A DNA stretch of 64,000 bases from Nitrososphaerota archaeon (GTDB taxonomy: Archaea > Thermoproteota > Nitrososphaeria_A > Caldarchaeales > Calditenuaceae), in the NCBI GenBank assembly GCA_041641295.1, contig JBEPYO010000001.1, positions 832,001 to 896,000 on the forward strand, in the 5' to 3' direction. Positions 27,521 through 62,138 of this stretch are shown here, piece by piece. A program made the position numbers and the translations under genes. Numbering within the stretch: the stretch's first letter is position 1; every line of letters begins with the position of its first letter. The notes under the pieces are model-generated. The model was not told where the DNA came from, ran no database searches, and was given only the letters and a program-made list of their open reading frames with translations.

Positions 27521-27926
27521 TGGAAGCTATCTATCGTGGCAGGGTCCACTCCTTCGTGGGAAGTACTTTTCTTCCAAAAACACCTATGGCAGAGACTTCA
27601 TCAACCACTCTTAGTGTAAGAACCTCTGCGTTGGGCTCCCAAACTAATTTACTACTCATTTCCATATCATATAGATATAGATAATGGATGTTATTATAAG
27701 CGCTCCTCCAGCCAAGACATTAGTAATAAGAGCGTCTCTTGGTTCAGGAATTAGATATCGATTAAGACTAGAGTATGTTCCACCACCCACCATCAAGCAG
27801 CCAACAGAGAAGCCAAAGGTAATAAGCGTTGAAGTGTCAGAGAAGTCGGTGGAGGCCGAGGTTTGGGGTGAAAGCCATGAGAAATTGTCTCGGAATGGTA
27901 AATATAGAATACGTCCGCTCCAGATA

Positions 27927-28528
27927 TGCTTGGGAAAAGCCCTCAGAAGAGGGCCGCCAAAACCAATTCCGAAAAAAGGTAGGAAGCTTGAAGTGAGTGC
28001 ACGATCAAAGACACTCTATCAGCTTTTACAAAAACCTATAGACATTGAGAGGCTAGGACGGTTCATAGAGCACTGCGAGGACTGCAAGAGGAGTTTTCTG
28101 AGAGGATTCTTCGATAGCGAGGGTTCTGTGAATAAGGGAAATGGGGTAATTACTTGCTTTAATACAAATACTAGGCTTCTCAAATATGTCCAGAGACTTC
28201 TCCGGTTCTAGGTATCAGAACAACCGGACCGCAACTCATGAAGAAGAAAGGGACAACCTCTACAATATTTGGGAGAATATTCATAAGTAAAAAGAATGTA
28301 TACTACATCACAATAATGGTGAGAGACGTACTAAAATTCTATCAACTGGTCTGGTTCACTATAAGGCGAAAGCAACAACTCCTCGAGGAATATCTCAGGA
28401 GACGCGGGCTACTAAAGGAGAAGCCGCCTAACCAATTCTCACCCAATTATTTCTCCCCTAAAATCTCAACACACTCATCACATATAAAACTCTCCCCCAG
28501 CCTGGCGGGGGCTCGAGAATCATCCTAA
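27927..28528 (+). pseudogene. 5'-truncated, frameshifted LAGLIDADG endonuclease; paralogue of 54871-55935
   Basis: CLGK...SKTLYQLLQKP...FLRGFFDSEGSV aligns by eye with the intact copy; a frameshift near 28206 restores LGIRTTGP. Confidence 0.88.
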
Positions 28529-52973: not shown

Positions 52974-53762
52974 CTACAGCTTCCTCAGCACTCTCTCGAG
53001 CCACTCGGCCGTAGCGGATATGGCCTTCCACTCCACCTCAGGGCCCGTAAACGTGTGGTCCCCATCCTCAACCACAAACTTCTCCCGAGGCTCACCGGCC
53101 CTATTGTATAGCATGTCCGCGTGGCTCGGAGGGACGACGCTGTCCCTACCACCATGGACTATGAGCAGAGGCCTTGGAGAGATCTTGGAGACTGCCTCTG
53201 ATATGCTGTAGGACAGGAGGTCTCGGATGAACCTCATGCTCATCCTATACCCCGATGGCAGGTCTATGTATTCGCCGGAGGCCGCACCACCCTTTAAGAG
53301 GGTCTTCGCGTACTCTGCCAGTGCTAGGAAGTCTGCGGGAGCGCTCCACGTGCAGACAAACCTAATCCTAGGGTCGCGTGAGGCCCTGACTAGGGAGACC
53401 GCGCCACCCATACTCAAGCCCAGCACCCCAATCCTCCCAGCGTCAACGTCAGGCCTCCCTGAGACATAGTCCAGCACACTGCCTAGGTCCTCAACCTCGC
53501 TTGTAAAAGTCGCCTCACTAAACTCTCCCTCACTCTCGCCCGAGCCATAGAAGTCGAACCGCACCACGAGAAGACCCCTCCTACAGAACTCCCGGGCAGC
53601 CCTCACAAATAGGCGGTGAGCCTCAATCCTATTCCCAGTAAATCCATGGCACATAATGAGGCTGGGGGCTGGGGAATGGTTGGGAACGTGGAACATGCAG
53701 GCGAGCCTACCCCGAGGCCCCCCCACCCAAACAAACTCCTCCCGCACAACCCAGAGCTGCAC
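52974..53762 (-). CDS. Alpha/beta hydrolase
   Basis: HGFTG, GLSMGG, HG..D and DH triad motifs. Confidence 0.9.
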   Translation of the reverse strand: MQLWVVREEFVWVGGPRGRLACMFHVPNHSPAPSLIMCHGFTGNRIEAHRLFVRAAREFCRRGLLVVRFDFYGSGESEGEFSEATFTSEVEDLGSVLDYVSGRPDVDAGRIGVLGLSMGGAVSLVRASRDPRIRFVCTWSAPADFLALAEYAKTLLKGGAASGEYIDLPSGYRMSMRFIRDLLSYSISEAVSKISPRPLLIVHGGRDSVVPPSHADMLYNRAGEPREKFVVEDGDHTFTGPEVEWKAISATAEWLERVLRKL

Positions 53763-53839
53763 ACCTCAATACAAATAGGTTATATACGCTAGGACAGAGA
53801 TGCCCATCCACCTGACCACCCAGCTGTACCGACGGAGAG

Positions 53840-53871
53840 TGGGGCCGGCCGGATTTGAACCGGCGACCTCC
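53840..53871 (-). repeat. Isolated tRNA 3' half (att-like direct repeat of 55985-56016)
   Basis: GGAGGTCGCCGGTTCAAATCCGGCCGGCCCCA; 28/32 identical to the tRNA-Pro 3' end, all 4 changes compensatory in the T-stem; no adjacent 5' half. Confidence 0.85.
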
Positions 53872-54020
53872 ACATCTTTGAGTTCTCCATTAAAATATCC
53901 ATATTCAGTGTCTTTAGCCTTCTGTTGTAGCCTCTATTAATGCTTCGGAGAACTCGCTTCGTTATATCGGGTCTTAACCGATGGTCTTTAATAGGCTCAG
54001 ACTATGATTACTACATAGGC
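53872..54020 (-). pseudogene. Degenerate remnant paralogous to the clamp-like gene at 9822-10178
   Basis: EALIEATTE/AKDTEYGYFNGEL versus EISARAITEVEGVEYGYFNGVL; CCATTAAA.TATCC.TATTCA shared at DNA level. Confidence 0.7.
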
Positions 54021-54094
54021 TGAGCTATTGTGTTGTGGTATTTTCGCTCTGGTGCCTATTCCTTTATATCTATGGGTTTGTTTGTTGGTCTTAG

Positions 54095-54870
54095 ATAGGC
54101 TCATCGGGAGCCCCGCAGCCTGATGGATCGATGAGTCGGGTGGGCCGACGAGACACCATCTCCAGAGGCGGTGGAGGTGGTGTGGAGTGTGCGTCAGGCT
54201 GTAGTAGTAGAGGCGCCCGCTGGTGACGTGTGATGTTAGTTCCACGTCTACAGAAGGCGCTGGGCTCCGCCGCTAGGCTGAGGCCGCGCGCCCAATAGAA
54301 AGACGCGGCTATAGGCCTAGACAGAAAGATTAGACGACCATAACCACATACTCTTCCCCCAATTCTCACCCTAGCATGGGTGACCACCCCACCGTCTTTT
54401 TTGGACGGGGTGGCGGGGGGAGGGGTTGGCTGGGCTAGGGGCCTTGGGGCGGTTCGCTTGGACCGACCACGCGCCAGGGCGGCTCGCTTGGGCTGACGGA
54501 CGCGTGGAGAGGGACGAGGAATACCGACGACTCCTAAGGGATTGCTGGATGGTTTCAGATGTTACGGTTGATTCTAAAGGAAGATGGTCTAGGAATTAGG
54601 CCCCGATAGGAGGTCCCCTATCTCCGCCGGAGGGGTGTGCTCTCCGGCGGGAGGGGGTGTTATTCCTCCTGTCGGGGAGTCCCGTCTTTCTGGCGGCCTG
54701 GGCCTCCCGGGAAGGCCATGTCTCAGGACATGGCTTTTAGGGTTCCCCAGCACCTTGGGGGTGGGTTGGTGGCTGGGGATAATAGGGAGCAATATGCTCC
54801 CTCCACAAACCCCACGGCCCCTCCTGGTCCCGGGAGGAAGGCCGCCATGGATGGGACGGGGGAGGATAGG
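54095..54870 (+). ncRNA. Putative large structured RNA upstream of the LAGLIDADG gene
   Basis: More than 15 nested stems with G-U pairs favouring the + strand; TTTATAT at 54063-54069; no credible ORF. Confidence 0.6.
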
Positions 54871-55935
54871 ATGGAGAAGACTAGGCGAAGACTAACACCG
54901 GAGAAGAGGGCTAGACTCTTAGATGCGTTGAGGAGGGGTGTGGAGAAGGGGTACGGCTACGTTGATGTTTGGAGGGAGCTGAAGAAAAGCGGGATAGATG
55001 TTTCTAGGAAAGCCGTTGAGTACTGGTATTACAAGTGTTTTCCAGAGAGGGTTAGAAGAAGGGGAGAATACCTCCCAAGAGAACTGAGAATAAGATTGTA
55101 TGAAGAAGTCAGAGAGCTGAGAAGAAAAGGCCTAGGATACCGGAGAATAAGGAAGAATATCAAAGAACTTTACGGAGTTACGCTGAACAATGCTGTAATT
55201 AGTCATTGGTGTCGTGGAATTCACACACCATACAACGGTGCAAGGATACCCACAATAGACCATCTAGAACCATCCCCAGAGCTCGCCTATGTTATAGGTG
55301 TGGTTGCCGGTGATGGGTGGGTGGTAAAAATAAGCACAAGGAGTGGAGGATATAGGATTGGTGTCAAGGCGAAGGACAGAGAGTTCATTGAGGAGTTCGC
55401 GAGATGCTTGGGGAAAGTCCTCGGAAGAGAGCCGCCGAAGCCAATAACTGTAGAGGGTGGGAAGCTTGAAGTACGCGTCCAATCGAAGACACTATATCAG
55501 CTTTTACAGAAACCCTTTGACATTGGGATGATAAGACCACTCGCAGAATACTCCGAAGACTGTATACGAAGTTTTCTGAGAGGATTCTTCGATAGTGAGG
55601 GTTCTGTGGATAAAAATAAGGGAGAGATTTGTTGCTATAATACTGATATCAGGCTTCTCGAATACGTCCAGAAACTACTAAGGGCTCTAGGCATTGAGAC
55701 AACGGGGCCGAGAATCAAAGCGAGAAAGGGGTCAATCTATAAAATATGCTATAAAATATGGGAGAGAACAACTGTGAAGAGAAAGGACGTATATTGCATT
55801 GAAGTCAGGGCAAAGGATAGACTAAAATTCTATAGACTGGTAGGGTTCACTATAAAGCGAAAGCAACAAAACCTAGAAGAACACCTTAAGAAACGCGGAC
55901 TTCTGGTGACAAGCCACCAACCAACCCTCCCCTAA
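54871..55935 (+). CDS. Free-standing two-motif LAGLIDADG endonuclease with two N-terminal HTH-like repeats
   Basis: LAYVIGVVAGDG and FLRGFFDSEG; GGAGG before ATG at 54871; no intein splicing blocks. Confidence 0.9.
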   Translation: MEKTRRRLTPEKRARLLDALRRGVEKGYGYVDVWRELKKSGIDVSRKAVEYWYYKCFPERVRRRGEYLPRELRIRLYEEVRELRRKGLGYRRIRKNIKELYGVTLNNAVISHWCRGIHTPYNGARIPTIDHLEPSPELAYVIGVVAGDGWVVKISTRSGGYRIGVKAKDREFIEEFARCLGKVLGREPPKPITVEGGKLEVRVQSKTLYQLLQKPFDIGMIRPLAEYSEDCIRSFLRGFFDSEGSVDKNKGEICCYNTDIRLLEYVQKLLRALGIETTGPRIKARKGSIYKICYKIWERTTVKRKDVYCIEVRAKDRLKFYRLVGFTIKRKQQNLEEHLKKRGLLVTSHQPTLP

Positions 55936-55984
55936 TCCCTTCCCCCCACTTAATGCCCTCAGACTCATTTGCTCATTTGAAAAA

Positions 55985-56093
55985 TGGGGCCGGTGGGATT
56001 TGAACCCACGACCTCCTTCCCCAACTTGGGGGTGAAGCCCCAAGTTGACCGGGCCCGAGCCGGGCATCTTAGACCATGCTCGACCACGGCCCC
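55985..56093 (-). tRNA. tRNA-Pro(CGG) with a 33-nt non-canonical intron at about 42/43 (56016-56048)
   Basis: GGGGCCG/CGGCCCC acceptor; CCCGG-CTCGGGC-CCGG|G anticodon arm; TTCAAAT T-loop; intron hairpin CAACTTGGGG/CCCCAAGTTG. Confidence 0.9.
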
Positions 56094-56150
56094 CCTACCG
56101 CTCCAAGCAGCCGCGCAAAAAATAAACGTAATCCGGTCTGGGAGGGGATG

Positions 56151-56381
56151 TTAGACGACTATAGCGGTTTCGGTCCTCTCAACGCCGTCGATCGTGTGTA
56201 TCTGGGATAGGACCGTGTCTGTCAGCTTCTTCAAGTCCTCAGCCTCTACTAGGACCAGTACGTCGTATCTGCCGGTTATCATGCACGCGAGTTTACAGCC
56301 CGAGATCTTTCCAACCTGCTCGACAACATTCTTCGCCTTACCCGCCCTAGCCCTAATGAAGACGTATGCTTGGACCGCCAC
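56151..56381 (-). CDS. Lrp/AsnC ligand-binding domain protein
   Basis: ITGRYDVL...I..IDGV.RTET. Confidence 0.88.
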   Translation of the reverse strand: MAVQAYVFIRARAGKAKNVVEQVGKISGCKLACMITGRYDVLVLVEAEDLKKLTDTVLSQIHTIDGVERTETAIVV

Positions 56382-56431
56382 GAAGTATCCACTGCCCTAA
56401 ACGCTTATATCCTTTCCTCCCCCACAAACCC

Positions 56432-56900
56432 TTCACAGGACCACGCAGAATCTGTGAACTGTGGAGGGCTTCTCTGTGAAACTGTGAAGTGTGAAATAGG
56501 ACTCTGAGAATCTCTGAAACAGACCCATAGATGGTTCATGTATTACCATTGTATGAATGATTGCAGTTTCTGCGTATCTCTCAGGGATGCCTGATTGTTG
56601 CAGAAAATGAGCATTTCTGAGCCATTACAGTCGTGTCATAGGGCCCTTAACGATCCATAACTTTACCCGGTGAATATGGGTGGTGAAGGGTGGACGCCAA
56701 CACTCCACACGCTCCACTGGAAAAGGAGGGGTTCAACAGACCTAACCCCCATTCACAGTGAAAAGCCGCGAAAAACAGCTCTTCGAACAGGATAGGCAGA
56801 TTTCGGACCTGAGGCCAAAGGCCTACGACCGGCACCTCAAAGAGGTGGAATAGCCAAACTCGCTTTAACACGCCCACCCCACCAGTTCTAATGGAAATTA
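56432..56900. promoter_or_regulatory. Probable replication origin (oriC) with ORB elements
   Basis: ORB CTCCACTGGAAAAGGAGGGGT (56712-56732); inverted ORB TTCCATTAGAACTGGTGGGGT (56876-56896); directly upstream of cdc6. Confidence 0.75.
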
Positions 56901-57014
56901 ACTAAAATCAACACAAACGGAGGAGGGAAAAAGAAATTAGATAAATAATTCCTCTTATCCTAGAAATTTCTCTCATGGCTACCGATAACACTGCTGGCTA
57001 GCCCTTCAATTGTT

Positions 57015-58286
57015 GTGGACGACTTTCAGTTGAAAGAGAGGGGTGACCCCCTCAGCGACCTGCTGGCGCGGGTCTCAGCCTCGTCGCGGATATTCAAGGA
57101 TAGGGAGGTCTTGCGGGCCGACTATATTCCTGGCAACCTGCCGCATAGGTGGGAGCATATCAAGAGGCTGGGTGAGATCGTCTCAACAGGTCTCAAGATG
57201 CATAGGCCGAGCAACGTCTTCATATACGGCAAGACTGGGACAGGTAAGACAGCTGTCGTCAAGCACGTCTTCAAGAGGTTCTCCGCGGAGGCTGAGAGGC
57301 TCGGCATTCCACTCCGCTTCGTCTACATCAACTGCAGGATTGCGGGGACTGAGTACAGAGTCTTGGCCGAACTCTGCGAATCCCTCGGCGTACAAGTACC
57401 ATTCACGGGCCTCTCAAAGAGCGAGGTCTTCAACAGGTTCAGGAGAGCCCACACCTCATCACAGAACCTCCTGATAGTATGTCTGGACGAGATTGACGTC
57501 TTGGTTAAGGGGTTTGGGGACGCCCTGCTATACGAGCTGACTAGGATAAATGAGGGGATTGAGGGGAGCAAGCTCTCCCTCATCGGAGTGTCGAACGACC
57601 TCATGTTTAAGGAGATGCTGGACCCGAGGGTTTTGAGCAGTCTGAGTGAGGAGGAGATCGTCTTCCACCCCTACACCGCTGTAGAGCTCGTCGATATTCT
57701 GAGCGAGAGAGCTAGACTTGCCTTTCACGAAGGAGCCGTCCCCCAGTCGACCATAAACCTCTGCGCAGCCCTTGCAGCTGCTGAGCACGGTGACGCTAGG
57801 AGGGCGCTCGACCTCTTGAGGGTGGCTGGTGAGATTGCTGAGAGGAATATGGCTGAGAGGGTTGAGGAGCAGCATGTGCGCATGGCGCTTGGCGTGATTG
57901 AGCAGGGCCGCGTCTTCGAGGCCTTGACGACTCTCCCTCTCCACGGCAGGATCGTCCTCCTCGCAGTCTATCACGCGACTCTCCGCTCACCAAGCAAAAT
58001 AACCTCAGGCCTGGTCTACCAGCACTACCGCTCGCTCTGTAGCCAGCTGGGCCTCGAGCCTCTCACGGACAGGAGGATCAGCACCCTAATCTCGGAGCTA
58101 GACATGCTCGGGGTCCTCTCGAGCAACGTCATAAGCTATGGGAGGTATGGGAGGACTAGGAAGATTTCCTTGAAGATTCCGGTGGACGAGGTTAGGCAGG
58201 CGCTGGAGCGAGACGAGTTCCTATCCCACCTCTTGGACCAGGAAGTGGCTCAGGCGGGTAGCGTGGAGAGTGAGCGAGGTAGCTAG
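57015..58286 (+). CDS. cdc6: Orc1/Cdc6 replication initiator
   Basis: YGKTGTGKT, LDEID, HGDARRALDLLR and wHTH GRYGRT motifs. Confidence 0.96.
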   Translation: MDDFQLKERGDPLSDLLARVSASSRIFKDREVLRADYIPGNLPHRWEHIKRLGEIVSTGLKMHRPSNVFIYGKTGTGKTAVVKHVFKRFSAEAERLGIPLRFVYINCRIAGTEYRVLAELCESLGVQVPFTGLSKSEVFNRFRRAHTSSQNLLIVCLDEIDVLVKGFGDALLYELTRINEGIEGSKLSLIGVSNDLMFKEMLDPRVLSSLSEEEIVFHPYTAVELVDILSERARLAFHEGAVPQSTINLCAALAAAEHGDARRALDLLRVAGEIAERNMAERVEEQHVRMALGVIEQGRVFEALTTLPLHGRIVLLAVYHATLRSPSKITSGLVYQHYRSLCSQLGLEPLTDRRISTLISELDMLGVLSSNVISYGRYGRTRKISLKIPVDEVRQALERDEFLSHLLDQEVAQAGSVESERGS

Positions 58287-62031: not shown

Positions 62032-62138
62032 TGGGGCCGGTGGGACTTGAACCCACGGCTTCCGGGTTTCTTCTGTGCCAGCTACGCTTGTTGATGGGAT
62101 CTGGAGCCCGGCGCCCTACCTTGCTAGGCCACGGCCCC
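62032..62138 (-). tRNA. tRNA-Trp(CCA) with a 33-nt intron at 37/38 (62068-62100)
   Basis: Full cloverleaf after intron removal; CCGGG-CTCCAG|A-CCCGG. Confidence 0.9.

Follow-up and report, generated by a model that had tools for sequence, protein, structure and literature searches.

What is the stretch of roughly 800 nucleotides (nt) that lies directly ahead of a LAGLIDADG endonuclease gene in the genome of a hot-spring Nitrososphaerota archaeon? We examined this question in a window of 64,000 nt (the whole stretch of DNA analyzed, G000:C1:832001–896000 of a 1.56-Mb archaeal genome, which the source names of related proteins assign to Caldarchaeales (Aigarchaeota); all positions below without a contig prefix are window positions). 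The first-pass annotation had proposed a structured RNA of about 780 nt at 54063–54870, with a possible pseudoknot, twin hairpins and a stem sequestering the ribosome-binding site of the endonuclease gene. We confirmed that the RNA is real, strongly folded and conserved. It is long, structured and encoded on the + strand, as had been proposed, but it consists of two modules, A and B, that are also found apart, rather than of a single unit. On balance, we lean toward the reading that 54085–54870 is a cis-acting structured 5′ leader of the LAGLIDADG mRNA that throttles translation.

All 20 stem strings quoted in the annotation occur once each within 54000–54900 at their reported places. We computed the minimum free energy of region 54085–54880 on each strand using RNAfold and compared it with those of dinucleotide-shuffled sequences, the check that had been suggested. 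The + strand yielded –413.4 kcal/mol, compared with –348.9 ± 9.2 kcal/mol for shuffled sequences (z = –7.0; none of 20 shuffles was as good), and the – strand yielded –343.5 kcal/mol, compared with –288.1 ± 7.9 kcal/mol (z = –7.0). The + strand is thus 70 kcal/mol more stable than the – strand, and the extra stability of G·U pairs therefore belongs to the + strand, in agreement with the claim that wobble pairs favor it. A putative TATA box (tttatat, 54055–54061), which had also been predicted, lies about 27–30 nt before the start of similarity among homologues (∼54085).

We compared the region with catalogued RNA families using Infernal and Rfam 15. At the gathering threshold, only two tRNAs were detected in the whole window. 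At E ≤ 10 in 53700–56200, the matches within 54063–54870 were limited to microRNA and small-RNA noise far below threshold (best 22 bits, compared with a cut-off of 140 bits). The RNA therefore matches no catalogued family. We also considered a protein-coding gene or pseudogene as the source of the conservation. Homologues differ by an indel of 1 nt within a conserved block of module B, and conservation is therefore not at the peptide level. In the extension 54718–54870, the differences at the three codon positions numbered 48/101/72, with a synonymous:non-synonymous ratio of 23:115, whereas the same comparison for the endonuclease core gave 505/435/904 and 546:730. The indel and the codon-position pattern ruled out this candidate; an open frame from 54718 was all that was kept (6/6).

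Module A spans about 54085–54530. This domain comprises several helices, among them tandem hairpins and a three-way-junction core of very high conservation (all features of both modules lie on the + strand). The consensus of its 5′ domain (54085–54345) was obtained using RNAalifold with six homologues, and individual stems were counted in seven. This domain is closed by a helix at 54087–54092/54254–54260, and many of its pairs are changed on both sides. It comprises a long hairpin I (54115–54123/54194–54202 and 54153–54164/54172–54183), hairpin II (54228–54232/54243–54247) and hairpin III (54273–54289/54302–54320). Among the stems read in the first-pass annotation, that joining 54115 to 54192 pairs at 9 of 11 positions in all seven homologues, with up to six double changes per pair, and that joining 54153 to 54173 is largely kept. 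The stem 54098/54129, from which a pseudoknot or switch had been proposed, is broken in most homologues. For the stem 54107/54262, the inner two or three pairs are conserved, but the full outer stem of 7 bp is not.

The core of module A (54349–54468) has an outer helix UCCCCC/GGGGGA and hairpins CACCC/GGGUG and CCACCCC/GGGGUGG, and additionally holds a helix GGCU/GGCC and the first of the twin hairpins; its variable loop is a hairpin extension of varying length. The twin hairpins (54450–54465 and 54480–54495) are kept, occurring in one to three copies in homologues, and a putative stem CCACGCG/CGCGUGG (∼54469–54475/54502–54508) encloses the second. A covariance model of the core (R1), which scored 103.6 bits at this locus, was applied to 76 genomes of the order and gave 34 matches in 14 genomes belonging to 3 of 15 genera. 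In metagenome contigs, 2 of 29 core-pattern matches were real; the only match in viral contigs was rejected by R1. In the alignment of the 34 sequences (31 pairs), 92.9% of cells were paired, compared with 85.9% after shuffling, and double changes were found in 16 of 31 pairs (84 cells), compared with 8.1 pairs (23.9 cells) expected; none of 500 shuffles reached any of these values, although fitting of the alignment to the model, and the relatedness of the sequences, make these figures generous. Pairing fell to 41–56% of cells when the partners were slid. Despite the generous statistics, the pair types are clear, with UA, CG and AU at one position and GC, AU and GU at another, and in helix 5 of R1, which belongs to the twin hairpins, 7/7 pairs were changed on both sides. 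Thus the suggested covariation check found both homologous loci and covarying helices.

Module B (54598–54870) was searched for using nhmmer, which detected 19 further distinct loci. RNAalifold with the full alignment drew just 16 pairs, the 3′ half being misaligned, and the named stems were counted by script instead. The outer helix (54601–54613/54665–54677) and the inner hairpin (54624–54634/54640–54650) are each kept in 13–15 of 17 sequences, and a hairpin at 54784–54802 is also kept in homologues. The strings of a long-range pairing (54691–54699/54839–54847) are present in the sequence. Changes in the helices of module B include U·G to C–G and A–U to G·U exchanges in both directions, which preserve pairing on the + strand only. 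The stems that had been read at 54624/54640, 54715/54727 and 54784/54796 were accordingly retained along with 54115/54192, 54153/54173 and the twin hairpins of module A, several of them by compensatory changes. The linker before module B is AU-rich, and a TATA-like TTCTAAAG lies about 25 nt ahead of the module.

The feature of module B that bears most directly on translation is an AUG at 54718–54720. Sequence comparison showed a conserved CCUCCCGGGAAGGCC-AUG, with CCAUG invariant or nearly so in the 17 sequences. This AUG opens a frame of 405 codons (54718–55935) that is in frame with the annotated inner start of the endonuclease, ATG 54871, 51 codons downstream. The same arrangement was found in all six endonuclease-type leaders, two of which (L022 and L027) lack a start codon at the inner position. 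AUG 54718 is thus the probable true start of the endonuclease reading frame, so that translation probably also covers the last 153 nt of the RNA. Among the 20 distinct copies in which the context was examined, the AUG opens the endonuclease frame in six, is fused to a gene for a protein resembling the RNA-guided enzyme TasR in one, opens an upstream open reading frame (ORF) of 52–63 codons in seven and other ORFs of 82–213 codons in four, and runs off the contig end in one. In the remaining copy (L062), the AUG is replaced by ACA, from which 63 codons are open.

The AUG lies in the 5′ strand of a hairpin of 8–9 bp (54715–54734), which is kept in 16 of 20 copies with differing stem sequences. 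All three of its bases are paired in these 16 copies, which is the occlusion of the initiation codon that a cis-regulatory leader would entail. The stems past the AUG vary among copies (GUC/GAC, GUCC/GGAC, GGAA/UUCC and ACC/GGU), and in L062 the change of AUG to ACA is matched by a change of the hairpin partner to UGU. In addition, the first-pass annotation had proposed that a string near 54617 pairs with the Shine–Dalgarno (SD) region of the inner start, where GGAGGATAGG begins at 54861. The string belongs to an insert, CCTATCTCC, that is present in endonuclease-type leaders only and is complementary to the SD region of its own copy in three of five copies. The duplexes are scarcely more stable than those of shuffled sequences (fraction of shuffles as good, 0.013–0.073). 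Sequestration of the inner SD sequence is thus suggestive, and the AUG at 54718 in its hairpin is the better supported control point. In three leaders of the TasR-like type (L045, L063 and L090), the AUG opens an ORF of 62–63 codons whose peptides are alike (MS.GDMV.GPA...DGELSPKRGL) and whose stop lies about 25 nt ahead of the main start, an arrangement in which translation of the two frames could be coupled. The ORF that begins at this AUG in L055 and L011 has 56 codons and encodes a different peptide.

As a cassette of two modules, the leader is portable and heads three unrelated kinds of mobile-element genes. Of the 34 core matches, 30 were fetched with their neighboring genes. The first gene behind the core in the same orientation was a TasR-like gene (encoding protein X, described below) in 16 loci and a LAGLIDADG gene in five, with none recognized in nine; the core lay 190–1020 nt upstream of, and co-oriented with, the recognized gene in 21 of 30 loci. 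Three of the nine unrecognized loci are cut by contig ends, and four (L017, L050, L054 and L076) carry an operon headed by the module A core that encodes a small Zn-ribbon membrane protein and a DUF87/TrwB-type P-loop ATPase (HerA/TrwB-like). Gene content of this kind is typical of integrated conjugative-type elements, and the operon probably belongs to such an element of Caldarchaeales. Leaders of the endonuclease type and the protein X type can be aligned up to about 60 nt before the start codon. Module B alone, with its own TATA-like box, precedes endonuclease copy c2, and module A without a recognizable module B precedes the TasR-like copy X1 of the same genome.

These results suggest the following mechanism. 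The + strand would be transcribed from the TATA-type promoter near 54055, and translation of the potentially harmful nuclease genes would begin at AUG 54718. The hairpin at 54715–54734 would hold this AUG and thereby keep translation low or conditional, and in endonuclease-type copies the added pairing with the inner SD sequence would restrain translation further. The downstream frame would be kept open, the stretch being constrained by structure and its peptide not being under selection. Module A would either serve as a protein-binding or stabilizing platform in the upstream part of the same leader or constitute a small-RNA gene of its own. Together with the endonuclease gene, whose family docks at tRNA 3′ ends, the entire unit would have entered the tRNA-Pro(CGG) gene. 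Several observations weigh against this interpretation. The AUG is locally unpaired in 4 of 20 copies, and the anti-SD pairing is barely better than in shuffled sequences. Endonuclease copies c3–c5 and TasR-like copies X2 and X3 lack module A or the whole leader. The homologous sequences are kin to one another, so that significance based on shuffles is overstated. Moreover, a deeply conserved structure of 800 nt far exceeds the needs of a start-codon hairpin, and the role of module A is unexplained.

The setting of the leader was established by comparison with a genome of the same genus (L012), in which the same flanking genes enclose one intact, intron-less tRNA-Pro(CGG) of 76 nt. The 3′ part of this tRNA corresponds to 53840–53871 and its 5′ part to 56049–56098, the two directly abutting, and the flanks are collinear (52984–53816 at 75% and 56049–57602 at 83% identity). 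This empty site proves that 53872–56048 is an insertion of about 2.18 kb, which splits the tRNA at position ∼42/43 (the border is ambiguous by one G). The insertion was unchanged in contigs from three DNA runs of two studies, and no empty allele was seen in contigs of four DNA runs, where the skip joints belong to other tRNAs; a look-up of RNA runs listed none that contains the stretch. At the left border lies the displaced native 3′ part of the tRNA (53840–53871, – strand, 32 nt, 100% identical to the L012 tRNA). The insertion then comprises an AT-rich left arm with the TATA-like box (53872–54084, + strand, GC content 0.47–0.49; the promoter is predicted from sequence), the structured region, the LAGLIDADG gene, a spacer of 49 nt after the stop codon and an antisense tRNA 3′ part. 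Within the left arm, 53888–53946 matches the left arm of endonuclease copy c4 at 78%, and 54039–54098 matches the promoter and 5′ end of copy c3. The endonuclease gene (54871–55935 from the inner start, + strand, after GGAGG at 54861) encodes a helix–turn–helix domain and a double-motif LAGLIDADG endonuclease (Pfam LAGLIDADG_3, E = 5.7e-22), with a GC content of 0.40–0.49, compared with ∼0.58–0.62 in the flanks. The genome contains five full-length endonuclease copies and a broken one, and all five full-length copies end 52–83 nt from a convergent tRNA. The broken copy lies in the window (27912–28417, + strand) in two pieces covering residues 174–346, with an in-frame TGA and TAG and no tRNA called beside it.

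The most frequent partner of the leader, protein X, has about 290 residues and 53 relatives, nearly all labeled hypothetical and assigned to Caldarchaeum or Nitrososphaerota, with at most eight per assembly. No family was found for it in Pfam, NCBIfam or PHROGs, and its profile matched nothing below E = 0.09 among PDB sequences; it was thus placed by structure comparison only. The AlphaFold model (predicted local distance difference test score (pLDDT) 87.2, predicted template modeling score (pTM) 0.82) matched, along its entire length, the TasR protein of a TIGR-Tas system (9mty_A; Z = 15.8, 246 residues aligned, root mean square deviation (rmsd) 3.3 Å), ISCro4 (Z = 14.7, 258 residues, 4.3 Å) and the IS621 bridge-RNA recombinase (Z = 14.6–14.7, 255–256 residues, 4.2 Å), and its C-terminal half matched TasH, Nop56/58-type proteins and Prp31. 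The predicted fold is therefore that of TasR/IS110, with a RuvC domain, a coiled coil and a Nop domain. In the alignment, the third Asp of the KTDxxDA-like motif reads as Ser, Ala or Gly, and no conserved Ser was seen in the C-terminal domain. All 14 copies of the gene compared, including leaderless ones, carry a conserved 3′ hairpin of about 190 nt that overlaps the stop codon. Two variable internal-loop strands of 13–17 nt flank its terminal hairpin, which varies as well, and its end is T-rich. In these features the 3′ hairpin resembles the stem-loop type of tigRNA described in PMC12045711, and by this analogy it is a better guide candidate than the leader. Tandem genome matches of the two variable strands in the three copies of the own genome were at chance level or to themselves only. 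These three copies (G000:C1:1092964–1094050, and C1:1028956–1029846 and C1:809212–810087 on the – strand) all lie outside the window. A comparison of G021 with G024 yielded no empty site for the TasR-like element, whose borders are approximate because the flanks in these two genomes map to different places. The family may already be listed in the supplements of TIGR-Tas or IS110/Nop5 papers.

Several other explanations of the leader were weighed against translational control. Modules A and B might be a new class of large RNA of archaeal mobile elements that is more than a translational brake: either a ribonucleoprotein (RNP) platform for a shared factor, such as L7Ae or the Nop-domain TasR-like protein, that coordinates the expression or mobility of competing nuclease cassettes, or an archaeal counterpart of the ornate RNAs of bacteria. 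We regard this as a minority possibility. An equally tentative place is given to the idea that module A, and perhaps the whole leader, acts in trans: it would be a stable, independent non-coding RNA of mobile elements, a protein scaffold or ornate RNA, whose position ahead of the genes is incidental. Its core has about 35 invariant positions and a mean column identity of 71%, compared with an amino-acid identity of 42–70% among the endonucleases, the modules occur apart, an AU-rich linker with a TATA-like sequence lies ahead of module B, and the family is tied to mobile elements; however, the core is co-oriented upstream of a recognized gene in most loci, as described above, and no terminator is evident between the modules. 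The leader is unlikely to be a guide, bridge or scaffold RNA of the TasR/IS110-like protein that has been stranded or borrowed before the endonuclease gene, although a TasR-like gene stands behind the core in more than half of the loci, the model of its product matches TasR, ISCro4 and IS621, and the bridge RNAs of IS110 sit in the 5′ non-coding end (PMC12045711 and PMC11208160). The TasR-like gene has its own guide-like RNA at its 3′ end, and the leader is therefore probably not a guide. In addition, TasR-like copies X2 and X3 are leaderless, the leader also heads endonuclease and ATPase genes, and its matches to the empty target site or the junctions (7–10 nt), as well as those of the variable core loop to the genome (11–13 nt), are at chance level.

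The two remaining explanations concern the DNA and splicing. Conservation could act on the DNA as a platform for recombination or homing, in the form of a homology arm or single-strand hairpins, that serves for swapping gene cassettes. Different genes stand behind a nearly identical module B, which requires recombination at or behind the leader, and the leader is found with mobile-element genes only. On the opposite strand, however, the many kept G·U and U·G pairs would be A·C, the structure ends exactly at the start codon and no recombinase is linked, and we consider such a platform improbable. Least probable is an intron-like RNA, of group I or the archaeal bulge–helix–bulge type, that bears the endonuclease gene. 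LAGLIDADG genes are common in such introns, and archaeal group I introns exist, as in the large-subunit (23S) rRNA of C. subterraneum (PMC6125680). The Rfam scan recovered that intron as a positive control (26.1 bits, E = 7e-4) but gave no row for the group I intron model RF00028 at E ≤ 10 in 53700–56200; subtype-specific models were outside this test, so that a very divergent core may have escaped it. The leader has no sequence similarity to the C. subterraneum intron, the leader/endonuclease unit is antisense to the interrupted tRNA with just 49 nt after the stop codon, and the borders 53871/53872 and 56048/56049 show no bulge–helix–bulge.

The proposed translation-throttling leader has parallels in known systems. 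Hairpins that occlude the start codon or the ribosome-binding site control the homing-endonuclease genes of phage T4 and, as fold-back inhibition, IS10; these are single short hairpins. Here too, the initiation codon of a mobile nuclease gene lies within a cis hairpin, in 16 of 20 copies and with compensatory changes, but this hairpin is part of a multi-domain leader of about 790 nt that is conserved across genera and exchanged between unrelated genes. Large ornate RNAs of mobile elements include HEARO/omega RNA, GOLLD and ROOL, all of which are in Rfam. The present RNA resembles them in size, in its dense conserved structure and in its mobile-element and tRNA neighborhoods, but differs in having no Rfam match, in being archaeal and in running directly into a start codon. 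To our knowledge, large conserved RNAs without a family are rare, and almost none is known from archaeal mobile elements. Like the IS110 bridge RNA and the tigRNA of TIGR-Tas (PMC11208160 and PMC12045711), the leader is a structured RNA beside a gene for a protein with RuvC and Nop domains, and like the former it lies 5′ of the ORF. In contrast to both, no programmable loops that match target or donor DNA were found in it; moreover, its partner gene has a 3′ hairpin of its own that fits the guide role better, and this gene is absent from the window. With the ORF-bearing rRNA introns of archaea (PMC6125680) it shares a thermophilic archaeal host and a stable GC-rich RNA physically linked to a LAGLIDADG gene, but the leader is not sense-oriented in an RNA gene and has neither a splice motif nor a group I core. 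A full-text literature search, which covered parts of main texts (Vaysset et al., 10.1101/2024.06.21.599552; PMC12045711; PMC6125680), found no published description of the leader RNA family.

New here are the exact insertion with its empty site, the two-module anatomy with a verdict for each stem, the invariant AUG with its hairpin, and a TasR/IS110-like commonest partner with its own guide-like 3′ RNA. The leader opens a way to study the control of toxic nuclease genes by hyperthermophilic archaea or their parasites, and one of its partners is a previously unannotated relative of the RNA-guided TasR/IS110 enzymes. It may thus represent a natural system in which a protein-guided homing nuclease and an RNA-guided one share regulatory hardware. 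If the RNP platform were real, the movement of the leader between a protein-guided endonuclease and an RNA-guided one would point to a docking module shared by homing elements at tRNA genes. With its empty counterpart preserved in a sister genome, the locus also provides a dated case of a mobile element splitting a tRNA gene, which bears on the origin of disrupted and intron-bearing tRNA genes in archaea.

The insertion leaves a hybrid tRNA on the – strand (55985–56093; Rfam tRNA, 44.9 bits), which consists of the native 5′ part of tRNA-Pro(CGG) (56093–56049), an insert of 33 nt (56048–56016) and a 3′ part (56015–55985). This 3′ part is identical to that of a tRNA-Pro(UGG) paralogue (G000:C1:602143–602218), with 55985–56017 matching G000:C1:602143–602175 at 100%. 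The 33-nt insert, at tRNA position ∼42/43, forms a plain hairpin of 11 bp, and since no bulge–helix–bulge was found, the hybrid tRNA may lack function or possess an unusual extra arm. The second tRNA of the window (62032–62138, – strand, Rfam 58 bits) is 107 nt long and therefore intron-bearing; ARAGORN missed both window tRNAs, whereas Rfam detected both. In another genome of the same genus (L007), two tRNA genes on the – strand (2585–2678 and 2812–2905) come after the endonuclease gene; they have equal Rfam scores and are 133 nt apart, which looks like a duplication of a whole tRNA at the docking site.

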